Shown here: in pieces, positions 1,732-22,643 of the stretch
Numbering within the stretch: position 1 is the stretch's first letter
Layout of the letters: each line of letters begins with the position of its first letter
Origin: Candidatus Hydrogenedentota bacterium
GTDB taxonomy: Bacteria > Hydrogenedentota > Hydrogenedentia > Hydrogenedentales > JACPGD01
Assembly: GCA_016182645.1 (NCBI GenBank)
Contig: JACPGD010000517.1
Span: 1-29,736, forward strand
Reading direction: 5' to 3'
Length of the DNA: 29,736 bases
Notes under the pieces: model-generated
Databases searched by the model: none
Told to the model about the DNA's origin: nothing
What the model saw: the letters and a program-made list of their open reading frames with translations, nothing else
Program-made: the position numbers and the translations under genes

Positions 1732-2322
1732 ATGAGACCGATGGGAAAGAAGGTAATTCGGAGTCTGTCCCGGATTTGCCCCTTGCTTGTGGGTTTCTCA
1801 CTGGCAGTAGGCGTCTTCTTCGCAGGTCACCATTTTTCGAGGGTTGGGTTGCCGAGGGTGGCATCAGAGATTCGCTTCGCTGATGGAACTGTCGCGCTTC
1901 TGACAACCACATTTAGCGGCACGCTCGAGCCTTTTATCGTATCTTTCTACGTGCAAGAGCCTGGAATGGCTTGGGTTTGGTACTACATTGACCATCAGGC
2001 CTTTTTAGGTTTCGCAAAGGCGTCTTTAGAGTCTACCGGGGACATCATTAGCATATCTGTTGACGGTGTTTCGCGGGCAAGATACGATGTCAGGAAGAGG
2101 GAACTTTACCGTGATGGAAAGCTTCGCAAACCTCTCATCTTGACCGATGGTTCTCCCTTTGAGCCGTATTCCCAACAAATGGTTGCACGCTCTGTGGAAA
2201 GTCGGGAGAATGACGCAGAGGCATCTGCTTTCTGCTTACTTCCGCGCAAGTACGGGCCCTCCCAAGAAGTCCAGGATCAAAATGGGAAACTAGGGACGCT
2301 ACCCATATTTCGGGGAAACTAG
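1732..2322 (+). CDS. hypothetical membrane-anchored protein (196 aa, N-terminal hydrophobic segment)
   Basis: ATG at 1732. The N-terminus ICPLLVGFSLAVGVFFAG is hydrophobic. Third-position GC is visibly lower than in surrounding genes. The stop TAG (2320-2322) lies inside a 30-bp tandem duplication. The ATG overlaps the stop of an upstream small ORF as ATGA. Confidence 0.55.
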   Translation: MRPMGKKVIRSLSRICPLLVGFSLAVGVFFAGHHFSRVGLPRVASEIRFADGTVALLTTTFSGTLEPFIVSFYVQEPGMAWVWYYIDHQAFLGFAKASLESTGDIISISVDGVSRARYDVRKRELYRDGKLRKPLILTDGSPFEPYSQQMVARSVESRENDAEASAFCLLPRKYGPSQEVQDQNGKLGTLPIFRGN

Positions 2323-2353
2323 GGGGAAACTAGGGACGCTACCCATATTTCGG
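2284..2353. repeat. tandem duplication of 30 bp (GGGAAACTAGGGACGCTACCCATATTTCGG) separated by an 11-bp partial unit
   Basis: Copy 1 is at 2284-2313 and copy 2 at 2325-2353. The unit GGAAACTAGG occurs 3 times. The duplication contains the stop codon and last 9 codons of the 1732-2322 CDS. Confidence 0.9.
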
Positions 2354-2417
2354 AAAGATGAAGCCCCAAATTGAACTCTGCTGTGGCCCGGTCCCCTTGA
2401 CCGTGCCACTCCCCCGA

Positions 2418-2610
2418 CCGTCAGGTCTCCTCCTCTTCTTGCCGCCGCCCCTTCCCCCTCTGCCATGGGCGCAGGGTGAGCGGAGAAGGCCGCCATGGTC
2501 ACCGGGCCGGTCCCACCAACCACCGCGTTGGTATCGAACTGCAGGGTGAGCAAAGAAGGCTGCCATGGTCACCGGAACGTGGCCCCAACCACCGCGTTGG
2601 TTTCGAACTC
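2418..2610. repeat. 18-nt motif CCGTCAGGTCTCCTCCTC (2418-2435) followed by a 70-bp unit repeated in tandem twice (2471-2540, 2541-2610; ~88% identity)
   Basis: Direct comparison of the two units (GCAGGGTGAGC..GCCATGGTCACCGG..CCAACCACCGCGTTGGT.TCGAACT). The 18-mer recurs exactly on the opposite strand at 7599-7616. Confidence 0.85.
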
Positions 2611-2750
2611 GGAGCCGGCGATCCGATCTCAAAAAACGCTAGAATTATTGGATATTTCCTGAATTATCTCTATTGTCCACTGAGTACCCCTTGTTTCGCA
2701 AAACCACTCCCCGCCCCGCTCCCGCCCTTTTCACACCTTCCGCATTCTCT

Positions 2751-2778
2751 TGGAGTCTGGAGTCTGGAGTCTGGAGTC
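2751..2778. repeat. heptanucleotide tandem repeat TGGAGTC x4
   Basis: Direct reading of the sequence. It is intergenic, 45 nt downstream of the 3' end of the minus-strand operon. Confidence 0.9.
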
Positions 2779-2823
2779 CGATGAGAACTTGCCATGGCCA
2801 GCACATTCCTTTCCTGTTGTTTC

Positions 2824-4266
2824 CTACTGCTTCATTCCTAATTGCTCCGGTTTGATGGGTGGGGAATAGCTGGGCATGCTGGCGTTGGGGGCGAGGACGT
2901 AGACGCGCGCATCGCCCAGCAGCGCGATGCAGGTGCGGCCCTTCCCCGCTAGGTCTTCGGTGAAGAGCACCTCCCGGAGCGGGGCATCGAACCGGAACTT
3001 GGCCGTGGGGGTATCGTCGAAGCCCTGCTCGCCATAGAGCCACACGGCGTATTCCTCCGCGGTGCGGCTACAGCCAAAATCGGTCCGCGTGTCCCCGTTG
3101 AAGTCGGCGAATACCAGGTGTTTCAAGGGGGCTTCGGAAGGCATCTCGAGGTACCACGACAAGGGCGCCTGGAGTGAAAGCGTGCTCGCGGCGCGCGGGT
3201 CGAAGCGCTCCTTTTCCGGCACGTACAAGTGCACGCGCAACAGGAGCGGCCAGGCGCCGCTGACCGCCGCGCGCGTCAAGGCGTTCACGGTGATGCTGGC
3301 TTCCGCCGGCGACCAGAGCAAGAGATCCGCATAACTGTCTCCATTGAAATCCGGCTGCCGCAATTGCCGCGTCACCAGCATGCCCGGGTACCGCCGGGCC
3401 GGGCCGGCGCGGAATTCCTGGGCGCCGGCATCACCCGTGGCCTGGGGCGCGCGAATCCGCACGAGCAGATCGCTGAACGCCGCATCGGCCGCGGCGTAGA
3501 GGGCACGTTCCTGGAGCAGGGCTTCTTCGCGCAAGGGAAACCAGGGCCAGGCCTCCGGCGGCATGGCGGCGGCCTCCACCATTTGGCGCGGCGTACCCAT
3601 GCGTCGTGCCACGCCTTCCGCCTCGAGCGGCTGGAGTTCCCCGGGCAACTCCGGCGCATTGGCCACCACGCTGTTGACCCGCATCTCCAACGATCCCGGT
3701 GGTCCGATCTGCGGCGGGTTCGAGGCCCGGCTGCTGAATGGTTCGCCATAGCGCGGCTGCTTCACGGCCGTGGCGGCGAGGGGGAAGTTATCGAGCAAAT
3801 CCCCGGCAGCGCTGCGCAGTTCGAGGGCCGTGTCCGTGGGCAGCGCCAGCGCGGGAACGTCCACGCGCGGCACCACCAGCACATGCAGAAACGGCTGGGT
3901 GGCCGCATTGGCGAACTGCGTGTGCAGGGAAAAAAGATCCGTGCCGTCCGGCGAGGAAGGGGTCGGCAGTCCATAGCGCACCAGGGCATCGCCCGCCACG
4001 CTGACGATCTCGCTGCGCCCGTCCCCGTTCAGATCCGCTATGTCCACCGCCGTCGTACCCGGGCGCAGATTCACCTCATAGGAGGAGTCGGGCCTGGAAT
4101 CCTGAAAGACTGTCAGGCGGAGTCCATCCAAGACGAACAATTCCGCGGGCCCCGCCGGTTCCACCTTCGCGGTGAAAAAGCGGGCTTCCGCACTGGGTAG
4201 GGGAAACTCCAACCGATCAAAGGCGTCCGCGGACAGCAACGCCAGGATGAGTGGCAGCAGCGTCAT
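2824..4266 (-). CDS. secreted FG-GAP/VCBS-like calcium-binding repeat protein (480 aa), fourth gene of the operon
   Basis: Internal ATG at 4266 gives a signal peptide MTLLPLILALLSADA. The longer ORF-track N-terminus is Arg-rich overlap junk. There are three D-x-N-G-D-x-x-x-D-[LIV] motifs (ADLNGDGRSEIVSV, PDFNGDSYADLLLW, ADFNGDTRTDFG). The start overlaps the upstream stop as ATGA (4263-4266). Confidence 0.75.
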   Translation of the reverse strand: MTLLPLILALLSADAFDRLEFPLPSAEARFFTAKVEPAGPAELFVLDGLRLTVFQDSRPDSSYEVNLRPGTTAVDIADLNGDGRSEIVSVAGDALVRYGLPTPSSPDGTDLFSLHTQFANAATQPFLHVLVVPRVDVPALALPTDTALELRSAAGDLLDNFPLAATAVKQPRYGEPFSSRASNPPQIGPPGSLEMRVNSVVANAPELPGELQPLEAEGVARRMGTPRQMVEAAAMPPEAWPWFPLREEALLQERALYAAADAAFSDLLVRIRAPQATGDAGAQEFRAGPARRYPGMLVTRQLRQPDFNGDSYADLLLWSPAEASITVNALTRAAVSGAWPLLLRVHLYVPEKERFDPRAASTLSLQAPLSWYLEMPSEAPLKHLVFADFNGDTRTDFGCSRTAEEYAVWLYGEQGFDDTPTAKFRFDAPLREVLFTEDLAGKGRTCIALLGDARVYVLAPNASMPSYSPPIKPEQLGMKQ

Positions 4267-5741
4267 GACGCCTCCTCCCGCGAGAAGTAGACCAGCGAAC
4301 CGGGCGTCTGTGCCTGCTGGGCCTGTTTGGGCTGGACCAGGAGATCGCCGCGGCCATCGTGGTTGATGTCGTACACCCGGATGTCCGCCGGCCCCGGCAC
4401 GCTCCAGGTCGTTTCGAGGGCGCCGCCCAGACGGCCTGGCGCACTCAGAAACAGCCGCACGCGTTCCGGCTCCTCTCGGACCACGACGTCTTTCCAGCCA
4501 TCGCCATTGAAGTCGCCGGTGAAATTGATCAATTCGCCCAGTTGATAGCGTTGAAACATAGGCCCGTTGAGATAGGGCGCCGCATCCAGATTGATGCGCA
4601 CCTGGCCTTCCACGGCGGGCGCCTTGGAGAACCCCCCGCTCTCTTGAGCATAAACACGCAGGACATGATCGAGCACGGAGCGGGTGAGTAGTTGCGCGAT
4701 CATCTCGCGCGGCCCGCCCTGGAACAGCGTGGCTGATTCCGAGACCAAGTCCTTGTCGCCGTCCCCGTCCACGTCCAGGAAGGAACAATGCGGGCGTAAG
4801 CGCTGGAAGGAAGGTTCGCGCACCACTTTGAACGTGGCGCCGCCATCGAGCGTGGCCCATGTTTCGTAGACCGGGAGCGGATACGCGGAGGCTTTGGATT
4901 CCTGCCACACGCCGCCGGCATAGTCGATCACATCGTCATTGTTCAAACGGCAGGGACGCAGGAAGGCTGGCATGGACGGCGTCGCCTGGGTCGAGCTCGC
5001 CGCGGGGTCCAGTTCCCAGGCCTGGCCGGCCGCCACGCTGTAGTCCGTTCGGACGTAGCCCCGGCTGGAGGCCGTTTCCAGGTCCTGGCTGAGGACGCTG
5101 ATCCGATTCGCTTGAAGGAAGAACCTGGCGGACATCTCCCGGGCCGGAAAGAGGAGACGGCGTCTGGGTGCCGGCCAGAGTTGCTGTTGTTCCTCTTGCA
5201 CCAAATCCAGCGGGGGCAGAATGCGCCAGACGGCACGTTCCGCATAAACTTCGCTCTCCTGGTTACGAGAGAAAACATGAATGCCCGCGGGATCGACGGC
5301 GATCAGTTCGGGGTCGCCGTTGCCATCGACGTCGTGGAGATACCGCTGCAAGCGCCGCTTTTCTTCCGAGAGGTCCGGCGGTTGAGCCGGCCAGGACAGG
5401 GGTTGGCCCACGACCGTTTCCCAGCCTCCCTGCGTCCATCGATAGATAGCCAGACTATTCTGGCTTCTCAGGTAGAGCGCACCCCTCCAGACATCAATGT
5501 CGGCGGGAGCGTCCGGTTGCGGCAGTGGCACGCGCCGTTCCGGGGGGAATCCGCCCGCCTCCTGGAACAGAACCATGCCGGCGAGCACCAGATCGTCGGC
5601 GCCATCTCGGTCGAGGTCGGCCTGGACAAAATTCGTGGCGGCTTCCGCGGTGAGGGGATCGACCACGCCGACGTAAACGGCGGGGATTTCCTGGGACGTG
5701 AAGCGCAGGGCGGCCAGACAAAGCAGGGGCAAGCACATCAT
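4263..5741 (-). CDS. secreted FG-GAP repeat (integrin-alpha-like beta-propeller) protein, 492 aa, third gene of the operon
   Basis: Start MMCLPLLCLAAL... (ATG at 5741) overlaps the permease stop as ATGA. Five spaced Ca-binding-type repeats are present (DLDRDGADDLVLAG, DVDGNGDPELIAVD, DVDGDGDKDLVSE, DFNGDGWKDVVV, DINHDGRGDLLV). Confidence 0.75.
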   Translation of the reverse strand: MMCLPLLCLAALRFTSQEIPAVYVGVVDPLTAEAATNFVQADLDRDGADDLVLAGMVLFQEAGGFPPERRVPLPQPDAPADIDVWRGALYLRSQNSLAIYRWTQGGWETVVGQPLSWPAQPPDLSEEKRRLQRYLHDVDGNGDPELIAVDPAGIHVFSRNQESEVYAERAVWRILPPLDLVQEEQQQLWPAPRRRLLFPAREMSARFFLQANRISVLSQDLETASSRGYVRTDYSVAAGQAWELDPAASSTQATPSMPAFLRPCRLNNDDVIDYAGGVWQESKASAYPLPVYETWATLDGGATFKVVREPSFQRLRPHCSFLDVDGDGDKDLVSESATLFQGGPREMIAQLLTRSVLDHVLRVYAQESGGFSKAPAVEGQVRINLDAAPYLNGPMFQRYQLGELINFTGDFNGDGWKDVVVREEPERVRLFLSAPGRLGGALETTWSVPGPADIRVYDINHDGRGDLLVQPKQAQQAQTPGSLVYFSREEAS

Positions 5742-6529
5742 GCGGAGAGGTTTCGGCGCTGAAGCGCAACAATGGCCAAGGCGGTACAGACGGCCATGAC
5801 GGCAAAGGAGGTGCCGAGGACATACCACACGCCGGGGAACCAATCCAGGGCAATGGCCTCACTGCGGCTGCTGAATACGGCCCAGGGCTTCTCGAGGTAC
5901 GTGGAAAAGACGAAGCGCTCGATGCCCAGGGGATATTTGACCAGGTCAATCAGAATCCATCCTCCGACCGCGCCGGAAGCCGCCGTCATGGGGCTCCTGA
6001 AGAAGGAGGAGAACATGAGCGCCAGCGCGACGCCCGCCCATTGCGGGGCCAGGCTCAACAGCAGTCCCAGGAGGTAGGCATTGCTCATCTCTTCCCGCGT
6101 GAAGAGCAATTCGCCGCCATAGGTAACGCCCATGAGTTCGCCGAGGAGCCACGCCAGCAGCCAACTACTCGCGCCAACTATCAAGGTCAACAGCAGGGCA
6201 TAGGTCATGCCATTGAGTAGTTTGGCCAGGACAAACTCGTGCCTGCGCACGGGCCGGATCAGGACTTGCCGGATCGTGCCGGACGCAAGTTCGGTGGACA
6301 CCAACCCCGCCGAATAAATCAGCAGCAGCAAGAACCCGAGGAAATTCAGGGCCACCGGCGTAATATAAGCGATGAAGCCGTAGTCGCTGACCTCGTCTTT
6401 GCTGATGGGGTAGAGGAGCGGGGCGCAGACGACCGCGATCAGGACAAGGACCGGCCCCATGGCCGAGTATTTGTAGTGGATCACCTTGTACATCTCGAAG
6501 AGATAGGCTTGAACAATGCGCCTGGTCAT
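5738..6529 (-). CDS. ABC-2 family transporter permease (263 aa, ~6 TM helices)
   Basis: Start MTRRIVQAYLFEMYKV at 6529 overlaps the ATPase stop as ATGA. It shows the multi-TM hydrophobic profile typical of ABC-2 (NosY/GldF-like) permeases. Confidence 0.8.
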   Translation of the reverse strand: MTRRIVQAYLFEMYKVIHYKYSAMGPVLVLIAVVCAPLLYPISKDEVSDYGFIAYITPVALNFLGFLLLLIYSAGLVSTELASGTIRQVLIRPVRRHEFVLAKLLNGMTYALLLTLIVGASSWLLAWLLGELMGVTYGGELLFTREEMSNAYLLGLLLSLAPQWAGVALALMFSSFFRSPMTAASGAVGGWILIDLVKYPLGIERFVFSTYLEKPWAVFSSRSEAIALDWFPGVWYVLGTSFAVMAVCTALAIVALQRRNLSA

Positions 6530-7446
6530 GAGGCCGCCCCTTTTTCGCTCTGGTTCATGACTTTCAGAAAATAGTCTTGAAGCGTTCGCCGGCGCGGCAT
6601 GATGGCCGAGACCTTGTATCCCCCCGTGACCAGGAATGCGGCCAGTTGGTGTACGTTTTCCTCGCGAAGGCGCACTTGAAGGCGCCCAGGTTTCGCCTCC
6701 ACCTTTTCCACCCAACTCTGCTCCGACAGGCGCTTGGCCGCGCCCTCACTGCCGTCGATCAGGACTTCGACCGAGGTCTGATCATAAGAGAGCAGCGCGT
6801 CCGTCCGTTCGCAGGCCACCAACTCGCCTTTATTCAGGATGGCCACGCGATCGCAGAGACTTTCTACTTCGTGCATCTGGTGGCTTGAGAAGACAATGGT
6901 CACCCGGGCGTCCTTGGCCAGGTACCGGAGCAATTGCAGGATGTCCTGGACCCCTTCCAAGTCCAGTCCGGCGGTCGGTTCGTCGAGCAAGAGCAACTCA
7001 GGCTCGGTCAACATGGCGTGGGCCAGTCCCAGGCGCTGGCGCATCCCTTGAGATAGTGCCCCCGCGCGGGCATTGCCCGCATGCAGCAGTCCCACCAAGT
7101 CCAGCAAGCGGTCCACATTGACATCATGCCCGGCCAGCCGCGCAAACAGCTTCAAGTTGCGGCGCACGCTCAAATAATCGTAAAAGACGGGCCGCTCCAC
7201 CAGCACGCCCATCCGGCGCGCAATAGACACGAAATTCCGCTGCAATTCCCGCCCGAATACGTTGATCTTTCCCTCGTCCGGCCGGACCAGCCCCGCCAGC
7301 ATGTAGAGCGTGGTGCTCTTTCCCGCGCCATTCGGCCCGAGCAGACCCAACACCTCGCCTTCCTCCACTTTCAGCGTCAAGTTCTTGACCGCAACCGTGG
7401 AACCATAGTGTTTCGTCAGGTTGTTTAGGGAAATACAGGTGGGCAT
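6526..7446 (-). CDS. ABC transporter ATP-binding protein (306 aa) with C-terminal extension
   Basis: Walker A GPNGAGKST, ABC signature LSQGMRQRL and Walker B LLLLDEP are all present. ATG at 7446 (MPTCISLNNLTKHYG). The longer ORF-track N-terminus only translates the heptamer repeats. Confidence 0.9.
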   Translation of the reverse strand: MPTCISLNNLTKHYGSTVAVKNLTLKVEEGEVLGLLGPNGAGKSTTLYMLAGLVRPDEGKINVFGRELQRNFVSIARRMGVLVERPVFYDYLSVRRNLKLFARLAGHDVNVDRLLDLVGLLHAGNARAGALSQGMRQRLGLAHAMLTEPELLLLDEPTAGLDLEGVQDILQLLRYLAKDARVTIVFSSHQMHEVESLCDRVAILNKGELVACERTDALLSYDQTSVEVLIDGSEGAAKRLSEQSWVEKVEAKPGRLQVRLREENVHQLAAFLVTGGYKVSAIMPRRRTLQDYFLKVMNQSEKGAAS

Positions 7447-7471
7447 GCGAAAATGGTAGCACGACGGGAGG

Positions 7472-7534
7472 GGGATTGGGAATTGGGAATTAGGAATTAG
7501 GAATGGGGAATGGGGAATGGGGAATGGGGAATGG
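7472..7534. repeat. heptanucleotide repeat array, 9 units (minus-strand sense: CCATTCC x5, TAATTCC x2, CAATTCC, CAATCCC)
   Basis: Direct reading of the sequence. It lies 26-90 nt upstream of the ABC ATPase start codon. The unit is related to the CAATCCG/CAATTCC array at 904-945. Confidence 0.9.
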
Positions 7535-7545
7535 GGGAGGAGGGA

Positions 7546-7616
7546 GGAGACCTGCGGTCGGGGCCGTGGCGCGGTCAGGAGACCACGCCATAGCGGGGGA
7601 GGAGGAGACCTGACGG
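7546..7616 (-). repeat. two direct copies of the motif CCG(T)CAGGTCTCCTCC.C..CCCCC plus a third GGAGACC core; degenerate copy of the 2418-2610 element
   Basis: The reverse complement of 7599-7616 equals 2418-2435 exactly (18/18). Downstream similarity continues (CCCCCGCTATGGCG vs CCCCCTCTGCCATGGGCG). A second copy is at 7546-7566. Confidence 0.7.
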
Positions 7617-7670
7617 AGAGCACGTATTTCCGTGTTTTTGTGCTTCGTCTCCCTTGAGCGCCAATAATGC

Positions 7671-7699
7671 TTGCTGATTGTGTTTCCGTGCGCTACAAT
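7671..7699 (+). promoter_or_regulatory. putative sigma-70-type promoter for the giant surface-protein gene (-35 TTGCTG, 17-nt spacer, -10 TACAAT)
   Basis: Hexamers read directly from the sequence in an AT-richer divergent intergenic region, about 110 nt upstream of the ATG at 7812. No experimental support. Confidence 0.3.
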
Positions 7700-7811
7700 G
7701 CGGAAGGTATGTACAGCATGCCAGCACGATGTCTGTAGTAGGTTTTCTGTATCGAATTTCTGAAACACGTGGCGGCCTGCAGGACGCTACGTATAGCGCA
7801 GGGGACGACCA

Positions 7812-10800
7812 ATGCAGCGCTTAGGGGTTTTCGCTTGGGCGGCGGGTGTAACGGGCGCCGTCATTGCCACCGTGGTGGTGGCCGCCGCGGTGTTCCAGCA
7901 AGAGGCGCTGCCGGCGCCGGATCGGCTGGACGGGGCTGGGGCACCATCGGAGACAGCGGTCCCAACGCCCGGGACGAAACCACTGCCGGCTGCGCTCCAG
8001 CGTAAGCTGAAGAAAGGCCCAAAACCCCACGATCAGCCGGCCGAAGCGCAGGAATTCTATGTGCAGCAACGTATGGGCGGCGCGGGGCCGCTGGACTATG
8101 CCTTGCTCGAGGCGGCCGCCGCGGAGGCGGAGAAACTGCCGTCGGCCAATGTATTCGCCGAGAAGGCCGCCGGGGACATTAGCGGTTGGGAGGAACTGGG
8201 TCCCGGCAACATTGGGGGACGTACGCGAAGCCTGCTGCTTGACCCCTTGAATCCGGACATTATGTACGCCGGCGGTGTGGCGGGCGGCGTCTGGAAATCC
8301 ACGGATGGCGGCGGCAACTGGGACCCGCTCAATGATTTGATGGACAACCTCGCCGTGACGACGCTGGCGTTTGAGCAGCAAGGGTCGCCCACCACCAATA
8401 CCGACGTGATATACGCGGGTACGGGCGAGGGCTATTTCAACGGCGATGCGGTGCAAGGCGCGGGGATCTTCAAGAGCAGCAACTCTGGCGCTACCTGGAC
8501 GAGGCTGGCCAGCACCAATAATGCAGACTTCTTTTTTGTGAACAAACTGGTGGCCAGCCCCAATAATCCGCAGGTACTGTACGCGGCGACGGCCACGGGC
8601 ATCTGGCGTACCAACAATGGGGGCCAAACCTGGACACCGGTCCTCCGCAATAATGGGGCGGGCGGAACGAGCGGCTCCGCGGTAAGGACTTTCGTTGGCT
8701 TCACCGACATCGAGATTCGTACCGACCTGACCACGGACACGTTGTTCGCAAGCAATGGAAGTTTCATCGCTCCGCCCAACTTCCCGGCGGACGGCATCTA
8801 TCGCTCTTTGGATGGCGGGGACTCCTGGTCTCGTGTTTTCACCCGGGCGGACATGGGCCGATCCGATCTGGCCATAGCACCGAGCAATCAAAATGTCATT
8901 TATGCCTTGACGGCGGACGCTCAAAATGGTGAGCGGTTGCTGAACGTGTTTCGGAGCATGGATGGCGGCACGACGTGGGCGCCGCGGATTTCAGGCACCT
9001 TTAACCGGCATAACGCGGACTGGCTGTTGCTCACGAATCCGCTCATTGCCAATCTGGGCCCGTGCTTCGGCGATTTCGACGGGGAATTCAACCAGGGCTG
9101 GTATGACAACATTATCGCCGTTGCGCCCCACAATCCCGACATCGTGTTTGCGGGCGGTATCGACCTGTTTCGGTCCGACAATGGCGGCGCCAACTGGGGC
9201 ATCATCAGCTACTGGTATGAGCCGATTGCCGGGACCGCCTTCGCGCACGCGGACCATCACGCACTCGTATTTCATCCGGCGTGGAATGGCGCCTCGAATC
9301 AGGTCCTTTTTAATGGCAGTGACGGTGGTGTCTATCGAACGAATAATGCGCTGGCCGCCGTGGCGTCCGGCGCCAATGATGGGGTGTGCAGCGATTCGAC
9401 AGAGGTGGTGTGGAACAGCTTGAACAACAGTTATGGCGTGACGCAGTTCTACCACGGACGGCCTTACCCAGCGCCCACGGAACGGTACTTTGGGGGTACG
9501 CAGGACAACGGCACGCTGCGCGGCGCGGACAATACGGGATTGAATGGCTGGAACGAAATCAACGGCGGTGACGGCGGCTATGTCAGCTTCCACCCGGGCA
9601 ACCCGAACATCCTCTTCGCCGAGAACACCGGCGCCAGTATGCAGCGTTCGGTGAATGGCGGCTCAACTTTTGATGATATTGTGTCGGGGGCGGGGCAAAT
9701 CAATTTTGATATCGACCCTGGCTTCATGTTCATCACTCCATTCCGCCATGACCCGAGCAATCCCGACCGGATCTGGTATGGCGGCTGGTTTGCCTGGCGC
9801 TCGAACAATGCCGCGAGCGCCTCCTCGGCAACCGCCGTGCGCTGGACCCAGGCCAGTGCAGTGACCCCCGGCGATGGGAGCATCTCGGCCTGGGGCATCG
9901 ATCCCAACAACAGTAACAAGGTCTACGTGGGTCTTTCAGACGGTGTTGTTGCGCGGACCACCAATGCCACAACATCCACCAGCGCCACCAACTGGGCGGA
10001 CATTACGCCACCCTTCACCGGGTTCGCCTACATCAGTTGGATCGAGGTGGATGGCAACGACACGACCGGCGGAACGGTGTATGTGACCAACTCGGTGTTC
10101 GGCTCCCAGCACGTTCTTAAGTCAAGCAACGGGGGCAATGCCTGGACGGACATCACCGGGAACCTGCCGGACATTCCCGTCCACTGCCTTGTCGTGCAAC
10201 CGGGGGCGGCAAGCAATTTGTTCATCGGGACCGACCTTGGCGTTTTTGTGTCGAAGATTGGCGGGGGGAATTGGACCCGCATGAACTCAAATGGTTTTGC
10301 GAACGTCGTGGTCGAGTCGCTCGAATTTCAGGACGCCGAAACCCTCTATGCCTTTACGCATGGGCGCGGGGCTTTCCGGGCGGCGGTACAGCCACCGGCC
10401 GGCGGCGAGGGTGAAGGGGAAGGCGAAGGCGAAGGCGAGGGAGAAGGCGAAGGTGAGGGGGAAGGGGAAGGCGAAGGGGAAACGGTGATCGTCGATGTGC
10501 TGACTGATGTGGCCGATGGCGACACGTCGTCGGTCCAGGCACTGGGTCTGAATCGCGGTCCCGATGGTAAGATCTCGCTGCGCGAAGCCCTCCTGGCCAC
10601 GAACAACACCGGTGGCCCGAATGTCATCACCTTCTCTGTCAATGGCGCTATCCGGCCGTCGACGCCCTTGCCGTTCCTCAGCGACCAGAGCGGCGGCACC
10701 CAAATTCAGGGGGGCAATACGATTACGCTTAATGGGATCTTGGCGCCCGCGGCCACGGACGGTCTCGTGCTGAGTTCGGGCGCTAACGCCGTCATTGGCT

Positions 10801-12434
10801 TGAGCATTATCGATTTCACGGGCAATGGCATCAGTATCCTGGGCGATCAGAACATTGTCCAGGGGTGTTTCATTGGCATCCGCCTGGATGGCTCGACCCT
10901 GCAAGGCAACGATCTGAATGGGATAGCCCTCTCGGGCGGCAGTGGCAACCTGATCGGCGGCAGTTCCACTCAGCAGCGCAACGTGATATCTGGCAATGGG
11001 CTAGGGATCCTGATCAATGTTGGCGCACAAGGCAATATCATTCAGTCGAACTTTGTGGGCACGACGGCCAGCGGGACGGCCTCGGCGGGCAACCTCTCGC
11101 ACGGTATACTGCTGGAGGAGGCGGGAACGTCCGACAATATAATCGGCGGAGTGGGCGTCGGGAACGTGGTGTCGGCCAATGGCGGTGAAGGCATTATCGT
11201 GAACGATGCCGGCACGGGCAACCAAATCCAGGGCAATTTCTGCGGAACCAACGTTACGGGCGCCGCGGGCCTGGGCAACACGGAGTCCGGCATACTCGTG
11301 GACAATACGACCGGATGCCTGATTGGTGGGGCCGTGGCGGGACAGGGCAACCTGGTGGGGGGCAATGGCTCCGACGGCATCGCCCTGGGAGGCGACGCTT
11401 GTGAGGGCAATGTAATCTCAGGCAACCGCGTGGGCGTCAATCTGGCAGGGACCGTGGCGATCCCGAATGCCAATGAGGGGATTGTGTTGTTCGGGGGGGC
11501 GCACAACAATACCATCGGCGGTTCCACCGCGGGCGCGGGCAACCTGGTTTCGGGAAATATCTTCAATGGCATCCTGCTGGCCAGCCGGACCACCGCCAAC
11601 CTGGTGCAGGGGAACATCGTGGGCTTGGGCGCGGACGGCACAACGCCTCTTGGCAATTTTGAAGACGGTATTGGCCTGGCCAATGGGGCGAGCAATAACC
11701 TGATCGGCGGCGAAGGCACGGGCGCGGCCAACGTGTCCAGCGCGAACAGGGGCGCCGGCGTGCACGTGAATGGATCGAACACATTGAACAACACCATCAG
11801 CCGCAACAGCATCTATAACAATGCCGGCCTGGGAATCCGGCTGAGCGAGGGCGGCAACGGCAACATGGGCGCGCCGGTCATTTCCGGGCTGGGCTCGGTG
11901 GATGGGACCGCGCCTCCCGATAGCACCGTCGAGATTTTCGTGGACGGCAGCGACGAGGGACGCATCTACCTGGACACGGTCACCGCCCAGAACGATGGTA
12001 CGTTCTCGAGCGACGAGCCGGTGGGCGCCTATGTCGGCATGTTCGTGACCGCCACGGCGCGCAATGCGGCAGGCAGCACCTCGATATTCAGCGTGCCGCT
12101 GTTGATTTCGGGAGTGGGCGAGGGTGAAGGCGAGGGCGAGGGCCGCGGCGACCACAGTGCCGACCTGAACAAGAATGGCCGCATTGAATTGTCCGAGTTG
12201 CTGCGCCTGGTGCAATTCTACAATTCAGGGATCTTTCATTGTCAGGGCGGTACGGAGGACGGCTACAATCCGGGTCCCGGCCCACAGAATTGCACCACGC
12301 ATGACAGCGATTACGCCGATCAAGACTGGCGCATCAACCTCTTCGAATTGCTCCGGCTTGTCCAGTTCTACAACAGCAACGCCTACTTCGAATGCACCGG
12401 TACGGAGGATGGCTACTGCCCCGGGCTGGGGTGA
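7812..12434 (+). CDS. giant modular cell-surface protein (1540 aa): N-terminal anchor, BNR/Asp-box (sortilin/GH74-like) beta-propeller, (GE)n linker, CSLREA motif + right-handed parallel beta-helix, second GE linker, duplicated dockerin-like Cys-containing C-terminal module
   Basis: - N-terminal hydrophobic anchor.
- At least 8 S/T-x-D/N-G-G-x-x-W BNR motifs (KSTDGGGNW, KSSNSGATW, RTNNGGQTW, RSLDGGDSW, RSMDGGTTW, RSDNGGANW, KSSNGGNAW).
- GEGEGE x12 at aa ~865-890.
- ISLREALLATNN then repeated N.I.GN....GI.L beta-helix rungs.
- Two C-terminal repeats (DLNKNGRIELSELLRLVQFYNS...C..GTEDGY.PG). Confidence 0.85.
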   Translation: MQRLGVFAWAAGVTGAVIATVVVAAAVFQQEALPAPDRLDGAGAPSETAVPTPGTKPLPAALQRKLKKGPKPHDQPAEAQEFYVQQRMGGAGPLDYALLEAAAAEAEKLPSANVFAEKAAGDISGWEELGPGNIGGRTRSLLLDPLNPDIMYAGGVAGGVWKSTDGGGNWDPLNDLMDNLAVTTLAFEQQGSPTTNTDVIYAGTGEGYFNGDAVQGAGIFKSSNSGATWTRLASTNNADFFFVNKLVASPNNPQVLYAATATGIWRTNNGGQTWTPVLRNNGAGGTSGSAVRTFVGFTDIEIRTDLTTDTLFASNGSFIAPPNFPADGIYRSLDGGDSWSRVFTRADMGRSDLAIAPSNQNVIYALTADAQNGERLLNVFRSMDGGTTWAPRISGTFNRHNADWLLLTNPLIANLGPCFGDFDGEFNQGWYDNIIAVAPHNPDIVFAGGIDLFRSDNGGANWGIISYWYEPIAGTAFAHADHHALVFHPAWNGASNQVLFNGSDGGVYRTNNALAAVASGANDGVCSDSTEVVWNSLNNSYGVTQFYHGRPYPAPTERYFGGTQDNGTLRGADNTGLNGWNEINGGDGGYVSFHPGNPNILFAENTGASMQRSVNGGSTFDDIVSGAGQINFDIDPGFMFITPFRHDPSNPDRIWYGGWFAWRSNNAASASSATAVRWTQASAVTPGDGSISAWGIDPNNSNKVYVGLSDGVVARTTNATTSTSATNWADITPPFTGFAYISWIEVDGNDTTGGTVYVTNSVFGSQHVLKSSNGGNAWTDITGNLPDIPVHCLVVQPGAASNLFIGTDLGVFVSKIGGGNWTRMNSNGFANVVVESLEFQDAETLYAFTHGRGAFRAAVQPPAGGEGEGEGEGEGEGEGEGEGEGEGEGETVIVDVLTDVADGDTSSVQALGLNRGPDGKISLREALLATNNTGGPNVITFSVNGAIRPSTPLPFLSDQSGGTQIQGGNTITLNGILAPAATDGLVLSSGANAVIGLSIIDFTGNGISILGDQNIVQGCFIGIRLDGSTLQGNDLNGIALSGGSGNLIGGSSTQQRNVISGNGLGILINVGAQGNIIQSNFVGTTASGTASAGNLSHGILLEEAGTSDNIIGGVGVGNVVSANGGEGIIVNDAGTGNQIQGNFCGTNVTGAAGLGNTESGILVDNTTGCLIGGAVAGQGNLVGGNGSDGIALGGDACEGNVISGNRVGVNLAGTVAIPNANEGIVLFGGAHNNTIGGSTAGAGNLVSGNIFNGILLASRTTANLVQGNIVGLGADGTTPLGNFEDGIGLANGASNNLIGGEGTGAANVSSANRGAGVHVNGSNTLNNTISRNSIYNNAGLGIRLSEGGNGNMGAPVISGLGSVDGTAPPDSTVEIFVDGSDEGRIYLDTVTAQNDGTFSSDEPVGAYVGMFVTATARNAAGSTSIFSVPLLISGVGEGEGEGEGRGDHSADLNKNGRIELSELLRLVQFYNSGIFHCQGGTEDGYNPGPGPQNCTTHDSDYADQDWRINLFELLRLVQFYNSNAYFECTGTEDGYCPGLG
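10404..10484 (+). repeat. in-frame imperfect hexanucleotide repeat (GGN GAR)x~13 encoding the Gly-Glu linker; shorter second tract at 12113-12142
   Basis: Direct reading of the sequence. The unit length of 6 keeps the frame if copy number changes. Confidence 0.85.
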
Positions 12435-19570: not shown

Positions 19571-21925
19571 TCAACTTGCTTCCGTGGCCGGGTGCTCGAA
19601 ATAAAATGCCATGCGCGTTAACTGAACATTGGTCGTGTCCCGGATCTGGAGGAACCGTTGCACCCGTGGGTCATAGAGGAGGCTCAGGCCGGCGCCACTG
19701 CCCGTACCGGGCACGAACATCCCCAGGTCCGCCGCGACGACCCCGCCGCGAATCGACATCCTGCCCAAGGTGTTCGAATTGTGCCGCGTAAAGCTGCGGC
19801 AAATGTTAAAGATCGAGTTGTTGCTGTACAGGAGTCCGTCGAATTTCCAGTCCCTTCCGCTGGAGGGCCGGGTCATTTCATCGTCGTACCAGATTTGGCG
19901 CAACGCGGACTCAGACATCCAGTTGCCCTCGGGGCTGGTATAGTGATACACGGCCCGGTCAAGAATGTCTGAACGTCCGATAGATGCCAGGTAGGTCGAG
20001 AGTGTCTTGACGCCGCTCTCGCTATAGCGGACCGAGTGTTCGTCCGCGGAATCATAGACGTAGATGTTGTTCGGCTGACTCTCGCGCAGGCCGTAGAAGC
20101 GCGGCACATAGCTGCTGTCCGCGATGGCCTTCTCGAGTTCCATGTTGTTGAACAGCATCAACTCGGAGGTGGTAAAGCTGAATTGCTGCCCAGGACGCCC
20201 GCTCACGGTCTGGCCCGCGTCCACGGAATAAGGGTCAAAATAGCCCCATTTCAAGGTTTCCGTCTTACTGCCGACGGTGACGTTATTCGTGCGGTTCTTG
20301 TCCCGCGCGTGGATACTGTACTGTGACCAGGTAGGATATTTTGCGTTGTTTTGCGAACTGTGGTTGACCCCCCGGACCGTCAGATAGTCGCCCATCATGA
20401 CGCTGCCGCCGGCTTCCAGCGCGAAGGCGTTCTCTTTGTAGGTGCCCGTGGCGGCATCAAAATCGTATTTTCCAAACATCCCAGGATCGTCGGCATAGGT
20501 GACATCGCCCACGATGTAGACATTGCCGCGGACCAGCAACCGGCCATCGCCTTTGATCGGTCCCTTGATAACCAAGTCACCATCCACGGCAACAGTATTG
20601 TCAATCTGGATCGGATCAGAACTATTGCCGACGAGAATCAAGTTGCCCTCGTAGCGGCCCGTGGTGCTCAAGGCATTGAGCGCGTCGGCCGTCGACACGT
20701 TGGGCAAAGTGGTTTCGGCGTAGCTCGTGCCCGAAGGGACCCCATAGGCGATGCCCCCGGTCACGGAGCCGGCGGGCGGCGGGGTTGTACTGGCGTTTTC
20801 AAACGTTACGACGCCATCCGCGGTATTAAACACGCGATCAAACTCATCATCGTCCACCATGCGGTTGCCATTGTCATCCCCGTAGGGCGCTGGAAATGAA
20901 TCCGGCAGGTCTCCATCGGTCTGGAGGTTCGAGTCCAGGGGATAGTCGCGGTACAGATTTGCAAAGGGTTCGAGTTTGCCGCTGCTATCCAAGCCCGCGT
21001 TTTGCAGGGCAACCTCTGACATGCCGCCGGTCGCATTCTGCGTAATCTTGCCGTTCTCGTCGCTGAAATCGTAGCCGCGCAAGGAGGAAGAGGCGAGTTC
21101 CGCATCGCTGTAGAGGGCGCCGTTGTCTTTGTATACCTGGCCCCGGGTATATAAGGTGCCAGCAACCTTGGAATCCACCTCGGCCGTGGTGCGGATCATC
21201 AGCGATTCGAGCGCGGCCACCTTGACACGGTCAAAGGTGTTGTACAGGGAGGGGTCCGTGTTCAATTGCTGATCCACGGACAGCACGCGCAGGTGACACA
21301 TAATGCAGTTGATGTTATTGGCCAGAATAGGATATTGCGGCCCAGTGAAGGGTTCACCCCCGATATCCAGGATTTGGACGGCCGTCTTGGTCTGGCCTTC
21401 ACAACTTGCCATGGCCCGAATGGTCAAGCGGCTGGCGAACACAGTGTCGAACCGGGCCACGTGGACAGCGTCGATGGTTGCCACAACACGCTCGCTGTCG
21501 GGATCGCGGAACTCGACGGGCTCGCTCAGCATGGCCCAACCCCGCTGGTCGTACCCCGAGGCGTAGGTCTGCAGGATGCCATCTCCATTTCCGTCTTCAC
21601 CGGCATCCTTGGCGCCATTGAAATTCAGGTCCTCATTCACCGGGACGGCGAGGTCCGAGTCCAGGAATTGTTTATAGGAGGCCACGTTGCCTGTGGTATT
21701 GCCATTGCCGGCAAGGTAGTCGTTCCACAGGCGCACCACCCCCAAGTCGATCCCTGCTTGCGCAGCTTCTTCCAGGACAATGGTGTTGTAGGCGTGGTCG
21801 GTTTCCTTTTTCGCCGCATGTACCCGCAGCATCACCACACCCATCGAGCCGAGGATGACTATGATTGCCATCATCGCAAAAATGAGAGCCATGCCCTGCT
21901 GATTACGCAAACGTGATCGACTCAT
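19571..21925 (-). CDS. large GspK-like minor pseudopilin / prepilin-type protein lacking Glu+5 (784 aa)
   Basis: ATG at 21925 is preceded by AAGGAGG 6 nt upstream. N-terminus MSRSRLRNQQG|MALIFAMMAIIVILGSMGV is a prepilin-like hydrophobic helix with Phe, not Glu, at +5 (the GspK hallmark). The ~750-aa beta-rich remainder has Asp/Gly/Asn-rich loops (NGNGDGILQ, GDDNGNRMVDDDEFD). It is the last gene after two pseudopilin genes. Confidence 0.7.
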   Translation of the reverse strand: MSRSRLRNQQGMALIFAMMAIIVILGSMGVVMLRVHAAKKETDHAYNTIVLEEAAQAGIDLGVVRLWNDYLAGNGNTTGNVASYKQFLDSDLAVPVNEDLNFNGAKDAGEDGNGDGILQTYASGYDQRGWAMLSEPVEFRDPDSERVVATIDAVHVARFDTVFASRLTIRAMASCEGQTKTAVQILDIGGEPFTGPQYPILANNINCIMCHLRVLSVDQQLNTDPSLYNTFDRVKVAALESLMIRTTAEVDSKVAGTLYTRGQVYKDNGALYSDAELASSSLRGYDFSDENGKITQNATGGMSEVALQNAGLDSSGKLEPFANLYRDYPLDSNLQTDGDLPDSFPAPYGDDNGNRMVDDDEFDRVFNTADGVVTFENASTTPPPAGSVTGGIAYGVPSGTSYAETTLPNVSTADALNALSTTGRYEGNLILVGNSSDPIQIDNTVAVDGDLVIKGPIKGDGRLLVRGNVYIVGDVTYADDPGMFGKYDFDAATGTYKENAFALEAGGSVMMGDYLTVRGVNHSSQNNAKYPTWSQYSIHARDKNRTNNVTVGSKTETLKWGYFDPYSVDAGQTVSGRPGQQFSFTTSELMLFNNMELEKAIADSSYVPRFYGLRESQPNNIYVYDSADEHSVRYSESGVKTLSTYLASIGRSDILDRAVYHYTSPEGNWMSESALRQIWYDDEMTRPSSGRDWKFDGLLYSNNSIFNICRSFTRHNSNTLGRMSIRGGVVAADLGMFVPGTGSGAGLSLLYDPRVQRFLQIRDTTNVQLTRMAFYFEHPATEAS

Positions 21926-21974
21926 AAGCGCCTCCTTGCGGAGCAGTCGCGCGTGACCCGCGGCTGTCATCCGG

Positions 21975-22643
21975 CTAATTCTGCAAATGAAGGGTGGTCT
22001 CCGATTCTGCCCGCACCACGTGCTCGTTATTCGGCCCATATCCCTTCGACGATTCCACGCGCACATAGAACGTCGTGAAATAATTGTTGTCGCTGGCGTT
22101 CGGCCGCAATTGGAAAGTCAGGGCGCTGATATCGTTGACGCCGCCGGTCACCTTGGTTTCCCCCGACTGCTCCCGCACGATCCGGCGTGTCAATATGCCG
22201 TCGCCATTGGCGTCTTCGCCCTCGTCCAGTTTGCCGTTTATCGGTGCATCATTCAGCCCGTCCTCATTCTCGTAGCGGTACACGATCGGGTCCGAGACGG
22301 TAATCATTGTGGCGTCGTTCGTGGGGACCGGGAGGACGAAGCTCACGGACAGACCGTCCCCTGAGACCGTTACGGGTATAGCGCCCGGCGGGACAAAGTT
22401 CGGATCCATTTGCGCCAGCGTCTTGTCGGTGTATGCGGAGCGGATCTCGCTGGCGATGGCCATCATGACGTCACGCACGTTGGCCTGCACTTCGCCCTTC
22501 GCCTGGGTCAGCGAGGTGGCTTCGGTCGAGCCTTGCAGCACCACGAAACTGAGGGCGCCGACAATCGCGAGGATGGCGATCGCAAACGTGATTTCGAGCA
22601 GGCTATACCCTTGTGTCGCCATGGCAGTGGTCCCCTTATTCAT
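21975..22643 (-). CDS. type II secretion/type IV pilus minor pseudopilin (GspJ-like position), 222 aa
   Basis: N-terminus MNKGTTAMATQG|YSLLEITFAIAILAIVGALSFV has the canonical prepilin cleavage/methylation site with Glu+5. An alternative start ATG at 22622 has AAGGGGA 7 nt upstream. M1 overlaps the upstream stop by 8 nt. Confidence 0.8.
   Translation of the reverse strand: MNKGTTAMATQGYSLLEITFAIAILAIVGALSFVVLQGSTEATSLTQAKGEVQANVRDVMMAIASEIRSAYTDKTLAQMDPNFVPPGAIPVTVSGDGLSVSFVLPVPTNDATMITVSDPIVYRYENEDGLNDAPINGKLDEGEDANGDGILTRRIVREQSGETKVTGGVNDISALTFQLRPNASDNNYFTTFYVRVESSKGYGPNNEHVVRAESETTLHLQN

Follow-up and report, generated by a model that had tools for sequence, protein, structure and literature searches.

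Four consecutive genes on the minus strand of a 29,736-nucleotide (nt) contig from a Candidatus Hydrogenedentes metagenome-assembled genome (JACPGD010000517.1; this whole stretch is referred to below as the window) form a compact cassette, g1 to g4, encoding an ATP-binding cassette (ABC) ATPase, an ABC-2 type permease and two FG-GAP proteins that are predicted to be exported. The cassette recurs with the same gene order in related loci, where its reading frames are joined by 4-nt stop-start overlaps with few exceptions, and the explanation that we favour, with modest confidence, is that its products make up a four-subunit ABC machine of the cell envelope with two periplasmic propeller subunits. 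What is known already is the kind of transporter, ABC-2; what is new is its association with lineage-specific, putatively periplasmic FG-GAP partners.

Organization of the operon

The four genes and the three junctions between them are as follows:

7446-6526, minus strand: g1, ABC ATPase, 306 amino acids (aa), ATG start, TGA stop
6529-5738, minus strand: g2, ABC-2 type permease, 263 aa, ATG start, TGA stop
5741-4263, minus strand: g3, putative exported FG-GAP protein A, 492 aa, five Ca-loop motifs, ATG start, TGA stop
4266-2824, minus strand: g4, putative exported FG-GAP protein B, 480 aa, three Ca-loop motifs, ATG start
6526..6529, minus strand: g1/g2 stop-start overlap ATGA; 4-nt ATGA in 22 of 25 related junctions
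5738..5741, minus strand: g2/g3 stop-start overlap ATGA; ATGA or GTGA in 22 of 23 related junctions
4263..4266, minus strand: g3/g4 stop-start overlap ATGA, preceded by GGAGG; ATGA or GTGA in 19 of 20 related junctions

When the frames were re-read on the minus strand, the four frames with their starts and stops and the three ATGA junctions all came out as an earlier reading of this DNA (hereafter the original prediction) had them. The minus-strand sequence of the junctions is ...CCTCATGACC, ...CCGCATGATG and ...CGTCATGACG, with ATGA at each. Could the internal start codons nevertheless have been chosen wrongly, so that no such chain exists? An open reading frame (ORF) finder gives longer upstream extensions for all four genes; that of g1 is a translated heptamer tandem repeat, and the extensions otherwise consist of out-of-context sequence. 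By contrast, when relatives are aligned by tblastn, the match starts with the first query residue in nearly all loci in the case of g1 and g2, and in several in that of g3 and g4. Because relatives align from residue 1, and because the g1 extension merely translates the heptamer repeat, the internal ATG starts are the correct ones.

The tetranucleotide ATGA occurs 86 times on the plus strand and 111 times on the minus strand of the window, and a single overlap of this kind is thus common. What goes beyond chance is the conservation of the overlaps across relatives, not the occurrence of one. The best reading of the sequence is that the four genes constitute one translationally coupled operon.

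Conservation of the four-gene unit

Related loci were collected from both ends of the cassette, 10 independent loci via g3 or g4, whose homologue neighbourhoods were retrieved down to 27-30% identity, and 17 metagenome loci via the permease. In all of these 27 loci, wherever the contig reaches, the order is ABC_tran, ABC-2, FG-GAP, FG-GAP on the same strand; among the permease-seeded metagenome loci the contig extends to g3 in 13 and to g4 in 10, and the order is kept in every one of these. In the g3/g4-seeded loci, the proteins are ~299, ~263, ~500 and ~470 aa long, respectively. The FG-GAP genes are hence syntenic with the ABC genes whether the FG-GAP proteins or the permease serve as the seed, and this synteny, which is complete in every testable relative, upholds the proposed role of the FG-GAP pair as a partner dedicated to the transporter. 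One match of the genome-collection scan described below, L014, was discarded, as it holds an unrelated 634-aa FG-GAP protein beside an acyl-CoA carboxyltransferase and a peptidase and has no ABC genes.

The junctions are conserved to a similar degree. The 27 loci contribute 68 junctions, of which 57 read ATGA and 6 GTGA, 63 overlaps of 4 nt in all; the other five comprise two overlaps of 8 nt, one each of 10 nt and 1 nt, and a gap of 28 nt. At the g3/g4 junction of the relatives, an AGGA-like purine run recurs 8-10 nt upstream. Identity to the window proteins across these loci amounts to 59-70% for g1, 41-56% for g2, 26-40% for g3 and 27-42% for g4, and because the overlaps persist despite such low protein identities, it is selection rather than recent common ancestry that holds the 4-nt overlap in place.

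The flanks of the cassette differ from locus to locus (amtB/glnB, cmk-recJ, murC-ftsQ, rnf and others), and since they vary, it is the four genes alone that make up the conserved unit. In four loci (L003, L004, L006 and L007), genes for cytidylate kinase and RecJ lie directly upstream of the cassette, a synteny that the window lacks. A protein of ~675 aa without a Pfam match is encoded further upstream in L006 and L007, and one of 685 aa, likewise without a Pfam match, upstream of the cassette in L008.

Taxonomic distribution

All homologues whose source is named come, like the window contig, from Hydrogenedentes or Hydrogenedentota. A scan of a genome collection with the generic pattern DFNGDG, which gives no measure of spread within the phylum, returned at least six loci among the matches listed, five of them with the cassette; four of these five are titled Hydrogenedentota or Hydrogenedentales and one Nitrospiraceae. 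The latter, L013 (CAYVOE010000206.1), is a complete cassette on an 8.9-kb contig from a co-assembly bin named 'uncultured Nitrospiraceae bacterium', a title that could not be confirmed. Its g1 and g2 are 65% and 45% identical to those of the window, respectively, and its flanks match none of the flanks of the other loci with which they were compared. This locus is either the product of mis-binning or the sole sign of the cassette outside Hydrogenedentota. So far, then, the cassette has been found essentially only in Hydrogenedentota, among which it is widespread, and not in the Planctomycetota and Verrucomicrobiota in which the original prediction had proposed to look for it. Hydrogenedentota are predicted to be Gram-negative, and more than 94% of their genomes encode lipopolysaccharide (LPS) biosynthesis (PMC11406978), for which reason a periplasm is expected in them.

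The ABC core

The g1 product matches Pfam ABC_tran with E=7e-33 (114.5 bits vs a cut-off of 25) and has the complete set of motifs, i.e. Walker A (GPNGAGKS), the signature (LSQG), Walker B (LLLLDE) and the H-loop (SH), from which it is predicted to be catalytically competent. Residues 221-296 give a weak match to Pfam DrrA1-3_C and form a C-terminal extension of the DrrA/NosF type. The closest solved structures are the nucleotide-binding domains of ABCA3/4/7/1, NosF (E=7e-47) and Rv1218c, all of which pair with membrane domains of the ABC-2 type. Among NCBIfam ATPases, the nearest are DrrA, lantibiotic-protection, GldA, RbbA, PQQ-ABC and NodI; against the equivalog and subfamily models of that collection, every score falls far under its curated cut-off.

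The g2 product scores above the cut-off with two permease families, ABC2_membrane_2 (49.0 bits vs 27.2) and ABC2_membrane_4 (40.3 vs 27), and its hydropathy profile displays about six hydrophobic segments. According to the topology deduced from hydropathy, its most conserved segment would be periplasmic loop 1, with a mean column identity of 0.78 vs 0.62 overall. A family profile built from 22 permease homologues found no PDB chain at E<=1, NosY entries included, and NCBIfam returned nothing meaningful, with PmtD appearing only at E=0.024; some g2 homologues carry the NosY COG name in their JGI labels. A motif-complete ABC_tran protein together with a separate, roughly six-helix ABC2_membrane permease is what defines transporters of the ABC-2 type (type V), and both the ATPase and the permease assignments of the original prediction are borne out by these family matches.

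The FG-GAP proteins

Both g3 and g4 score above the gathering cut-offs of FG-GAP_3 and FG-GAP (26.9 and 22.1 bits), with 64.4 and 37.3 bits for g3 and 35.7 and 31.4 bits for g4, respectively, and both carry Ca loops of the DxDxDG type, as FG-GAP/VCBS repeat proteins do. The profile search thus agrees with the earlier assignment and places neither protein in an unrelated family. With the loose pattern D-x-[DN]-x-[DN]-x(3,4)-[DE]-hydrophobic, five loops are found in g3 (positions 42, 137, 323, 410 and 458) and three in g4 (positions 78, 306 and 388). These are the numbers originally counted, but the strict motif in which the loops had been written, D-x-[DN]-x-D-G-x-x-D-[LIV][LIV], fits four of the eight.

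An NCBIfam search gave no meaningful match for either protein, and profiles of g3 and g4 run against the PDB matched only stretches of ~30-80 residues around the Ca loops of UmbA-type esterases, PL11 lyases and integrins; such matches do not speak for a function shared with any of the three. The AlphaFold2 models are confident and almost all beta, with a predicted local distance difference test score (pLDDT) of 83.7 and a predicted template-modelling score (pTM) of 0.83 for g3, and 85.0 and 0.81, respectively, for g4. The structural neighbours of the two proteins include FG-GAP propellers, among them the lectins PVL and PLL as well as a rhamnose-glucuronate lyase.

How are the two proteins related to each other? 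In BLASTP of g3 against g4, the loop motifs are the sole similarity, while in a profile-profile comparison the C-terminal ~145 residues are homologous (E=4e-16). Three FG-GAP loops lie in this shared module, the first of them followed by an inserted helix, and g3 and g4 are thus ancient paralogues, at least in part. In both families, the N-terminus opens with a short hydrophobic segment. That of many g4-family members closes on a small residue, followed by L and F-D-V (e.g. SAL/FDV or GAL/FDV), and where the N-terminus of a g4 homologue is longer, the segment takes the form of a classic signal peptide whose n-region is basic; in the g3 family, an 'LGALxF' segment is conserved. With such signal-like N-termini, both proteins are predicted to be exported to the periplasm. 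The g3 family is large and uniform in length: an exhaustive HMMER search with its profile retrieved full-length representatives of at least about 135 clusters at 50% identity, of which nearly all measure 480-520 aa, with the generic giant VCBS proteins ranking beneath the family members. P0171, a 775-aa entry of the representative library, looks like a fusion of the permease with g3; it was rejected as such and probably reflects an assembly frameshift, the last transmembrane helix of its permease part being replaced by out-of-frame sequence just ahead of the usual ATGA overlap.

A candidate envelope machine and its alternatives

A competent ATPase, a permease with a conserved loop, two putatively exported propeller-type proteins and overlaps that preserve dosage together suggest proteins made in fixed proportion and acting together. 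In the explanation favoured above, G1 and G2 would form the usual 2+2 inner-membrane core, G2 with the type V fold, while G3 and G4 would leave the cytoplasm by Sec via their own N-terminal signal-like segments, fold as FG-GAP domains of the beta-propeller type with Ca2+ loops, and work with the transporter as its dedicated periplasmic partners. What would the propellers do there? They might bind to G2 at its conserved periplasmic loops and receive a substrate extruded from the inner membrane, which would then be amphipathic, lipid-linked or a glycan. Alternatively, ATP hydrolysis might move the propellers conformationally, in a mechanotransduction of the NosDFY type. Export and residence of G3 and G4 in the periplasm, complex formation, stoichiometry, direction of transport and substrate class are what we infer in this scheme.

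The same findings may, however, be reconciled with a pathway operon whose products form no stable complex, a possibility that we regard as real although appreciably less probable. In such a pathway, the ABC-2 transporter would export a glycan, a lipid or another envelope precursor, and G3 and G4, free in the periplasm or at the surface, would act downstream as Ca2+-dependent proteins that bind carbohydrate, in the manner of lectins, or process it, in the manner of lyases. The lectins and the lyase among the structural neighbours lend themselves to this idea, as do the profile matches to PL11 lyases (YesW and YesX), although these span only Ca loops of ~30 residues, and synteny and coupling are as compatible with co-function as with a complex. 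No catalytic family was matched past the generic Ca loops, though, and no glycan-synthesis genes are conserved nearby in the relatives; the near-invariant overlaps at three junctions, moreover, kept as they are across deep divergence, point to selection acting on the dosage of the products relative to one another, as is more typical of subunits. We consider it improbable that the cassette is instead an immunity module, in which a membrane-active compound would be pumped out by an ABC-2 transporter like those of lantibiotic or peptide immunity and the FG-GAP pair would act as periplasmic inhibitor or immunity proteins like XAC2610 or PliI. The hits that prompt this idea, to lantibiotic-protection, XAC2610 and PliI models, all lie below threshold, and by so much (184.9 vs 309.75; 19.4 vs 35) that generic ABC or FG-GAP-loop similarity explains them. 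The cassette, furthermore, adjoins housekeeping genes (cmk, recJ), its vicinity holds no genes for toxins, bacteriocins or secretion, and the many diverse, length-uniform family members suggest vertical inheritance as a core function.

Least probable of all is the view, entertained by the original prediction, that G3 and G4 are themselves the cargo, which the transporter exports or assembles at the surface. Tight genetic linkage is the one observation in its favour. The two proteins have hydrophobic N-termini of the Sec type of their own, the permease is small, with six helices, and the cassette has neither a C39 peptidase nor a membrane-fusion or outer-membrane partner; moreover, we know of no ABC-2 exporter that translocates folded proteins of ~50 kDa. 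The giant neighbouring protein that had been proposed as a co-substrate is not conserved (see below). Both the signal-peptide-like N-termini and the type of transporter thus speak against cargo.

The favoured four-subunit machine can also be put in a bolder form, which we offer as speculation and think rather unlikely as a whole: a mechanotransducing envelope ABC machine of a class not recognised before, specific to Hydrogenedentota and vertically inherited within them, in which an ABC-2 motor powers a heterodimer of paralogous periplasmic FG-GAP propellers that serves the envelope in a core capacity, for instance by carrying a lipid or glycan from one membrane to the other. If true, such a machine would rank functionally with Lol, Lpt or NosDFY, while being built of different parts.

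Surroundings of the cassette in the window

The following features flank the operon or lie elsewhere in the window:

7447..7811, minus strand: upstream intergenic region, presumed promoter and leader, containing the heptamer tandem repeat at 7470-7536; its membership of the system is uncertain
7470-7536: GGGGAAT x9.6, 24 nt upstream of the g1 start
2751-2778: TGGAGTC x4, 46 nt downstream of the g4 stop
904-942: CAATCCG x5.6 (repeats also at 835-904 and 952-986), further downstream of the operon
7812-12434, plus strand: giant divergent protein, 1540 aa, matching Sortilin/BNR-type and right-handed beta-helix families
19571-22066, minus strand: ORF without a Pfam match, 831 aa
21975-22643, minus strand: ORF without a Pfam match, 222 aa
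22636-23214, minus strand: ORF without a Pfam match, 192 aa

Intergenic DNA on both sides of the operon thus contains perfect or near-perfect heptamer tandem repeats, which are similar to the heptamers known from cyanobacteria as short tandemly repeated (STRR) sequences. A scan for the sigma-70 consensus found no match upstream of g1 (7447-7811) and none that was convincing within 2300-8000, an Rfam scan of 2300-8000 no family at E<=1, and terminator-like sites show no excess between the same positions (6 vs 4.8 expected from shuffled sequence).

The divergently encoded 1540-aa protein contains long (Gly-Glu)n linkers, encoded by a GGCGAA repeat at 10404-10481, and ends in a duplicated 'ELLRLVQFYNS...C...GTEDGY.PG' module. 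Neither this protein nor seven other genes of the window gave a tblastn match in the flanking sequence available for the first 14 loci retrieved, and the suggested link between the cassette and the giant beta-helix protein, which is absent from those flanks, consequently finds no support. Elsewhere, the window carries genes of an ordinary chromosomal kind, among them those for an aminotransferase, a response regulator, an SPFH protein, galactokinase, endonuclease III and PolX. The ORFs of 222 and 192 aa overlap by 8 nt and, when read from its first start codon, that of 222 aa overlaps the 831-aa one by 92 nt; the run adjoins a HEAT-repeat protein and, judged by its layout, may represent another uncharacterised operon.

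Significance

ABC-2 transporters that work via dedicated periplasmic partners, such as NosDFY, GldAFG and Ped, are few and mechanistically informative. The type of partner found here, a propeller-like FG-GAP pair, is undescribed in Pfam, NCBIfam, the PDB and the literature searched. Given that the four genes form an indivisible unit across a large and diverse set of Hydrogenedentota, they likely serve an envelope function that defines the lineage. To our knowledge, Hydrogenedentota include no cultured, genetically tractable members. The cassette, with four small genes and no further conserved parts, offers a compact target for heterologous expression and electron cryo-microscopy; pending its substrate, its practical significance is limited.

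Comparison with known systems

Our searches turned up no curated family (Pfam, NCBIfam), solved structure (PDB) or paper that covers the permease or the FG-GAP pair, and literature searches for FG-GAP together with an ABC-2 transporter, or for Hydrogenedentota together with FG-GAP/VCBS, returned nothing relevant. This agrees with the original remark that no FG-GAP-linked ABC system has been named. Several ATPase families can be set aside on their scores: g1 reaches 217.6 against the drrA model, with a cut-off of 312.45, and 184.9 against galliderm_ABC, with a cut-off of 309.75, which places the cassette neither with DrrAB nor with the lantibiotic-immunity systems. On the side of the partner proteins, the FG-GAP/VCBS beta-propellers, exemplified by the integrin alpha head, the TcB/YenB propeller and the PVL lectin, count among the closest known systems.

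One of the closest systems for comparison is NosDFY, in which the NosF ATPase, the NosY permease and the periplasmic partner NosD take part in copper delivery to nitrous oxide reductase. As in NosDFY, the ABC-2 core is encoded together with a dedicated all-beta periplasmic partner; the partner of the cassette, however, is a pair of the FG-GAP propeller type, whereas NosD is a beta-helix. The cassette does not belong to NosDFY proper, as neither NosD nor NosY is matched: none of the four proteins has a Pfam match to NosD, and there is no nosZ/nosL context in the window or in the neighbourhoods of the relatives. In the NosDFY structures of the 7O0Y series, ATP hydrolysis reportedly drives the periplasmic partner and not bulk export, and by analogy a mechanism that drives the partner is plausible for the cassette.

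Two further systems bear comparison. The ABC operon PedA1A2BC of Pseudomonas putida includes a beta-propeller protein of unknown function (PMC6839425). The class of propeller differs, however, being YVTN in Ped and FG-GAP in the cassette, and the cassette encodes two propeller proteins, where Ped has one together with a substrate-binding protein. The g1 score against TIGR03864 (PQQ_ABC ATPase) is 162.5 vs a cut-off of 302.25, NCBIfam gives no PedC-type match for g2, and the cassette has neither a ped/PQQ context nor a binding-protein gene, all of which keeps it apart from the Ped/PQQ-ADH systems. With GldAFG of bacteroidotal gliding motility, on the other hand, it shares an ABC-2 core and a large extracytoplasmic accessory protein encoded in one operon. 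Here, too, g1 stays below the equivalog cut-off (GldA, E=5e-54, 183.8 bits vs 402.6), no GldF or GldG model appears among the NCBIfam results for g2, g3 and g4, and the cassette, which belongs to a different phylum, lacks an accessory protein of the GldG type; it is thus not a GldAFG system. In its architecture, the cassette would nonetheless work, by analogy, in the way that NosDFY, GldAFG and PedA1A2BC do.

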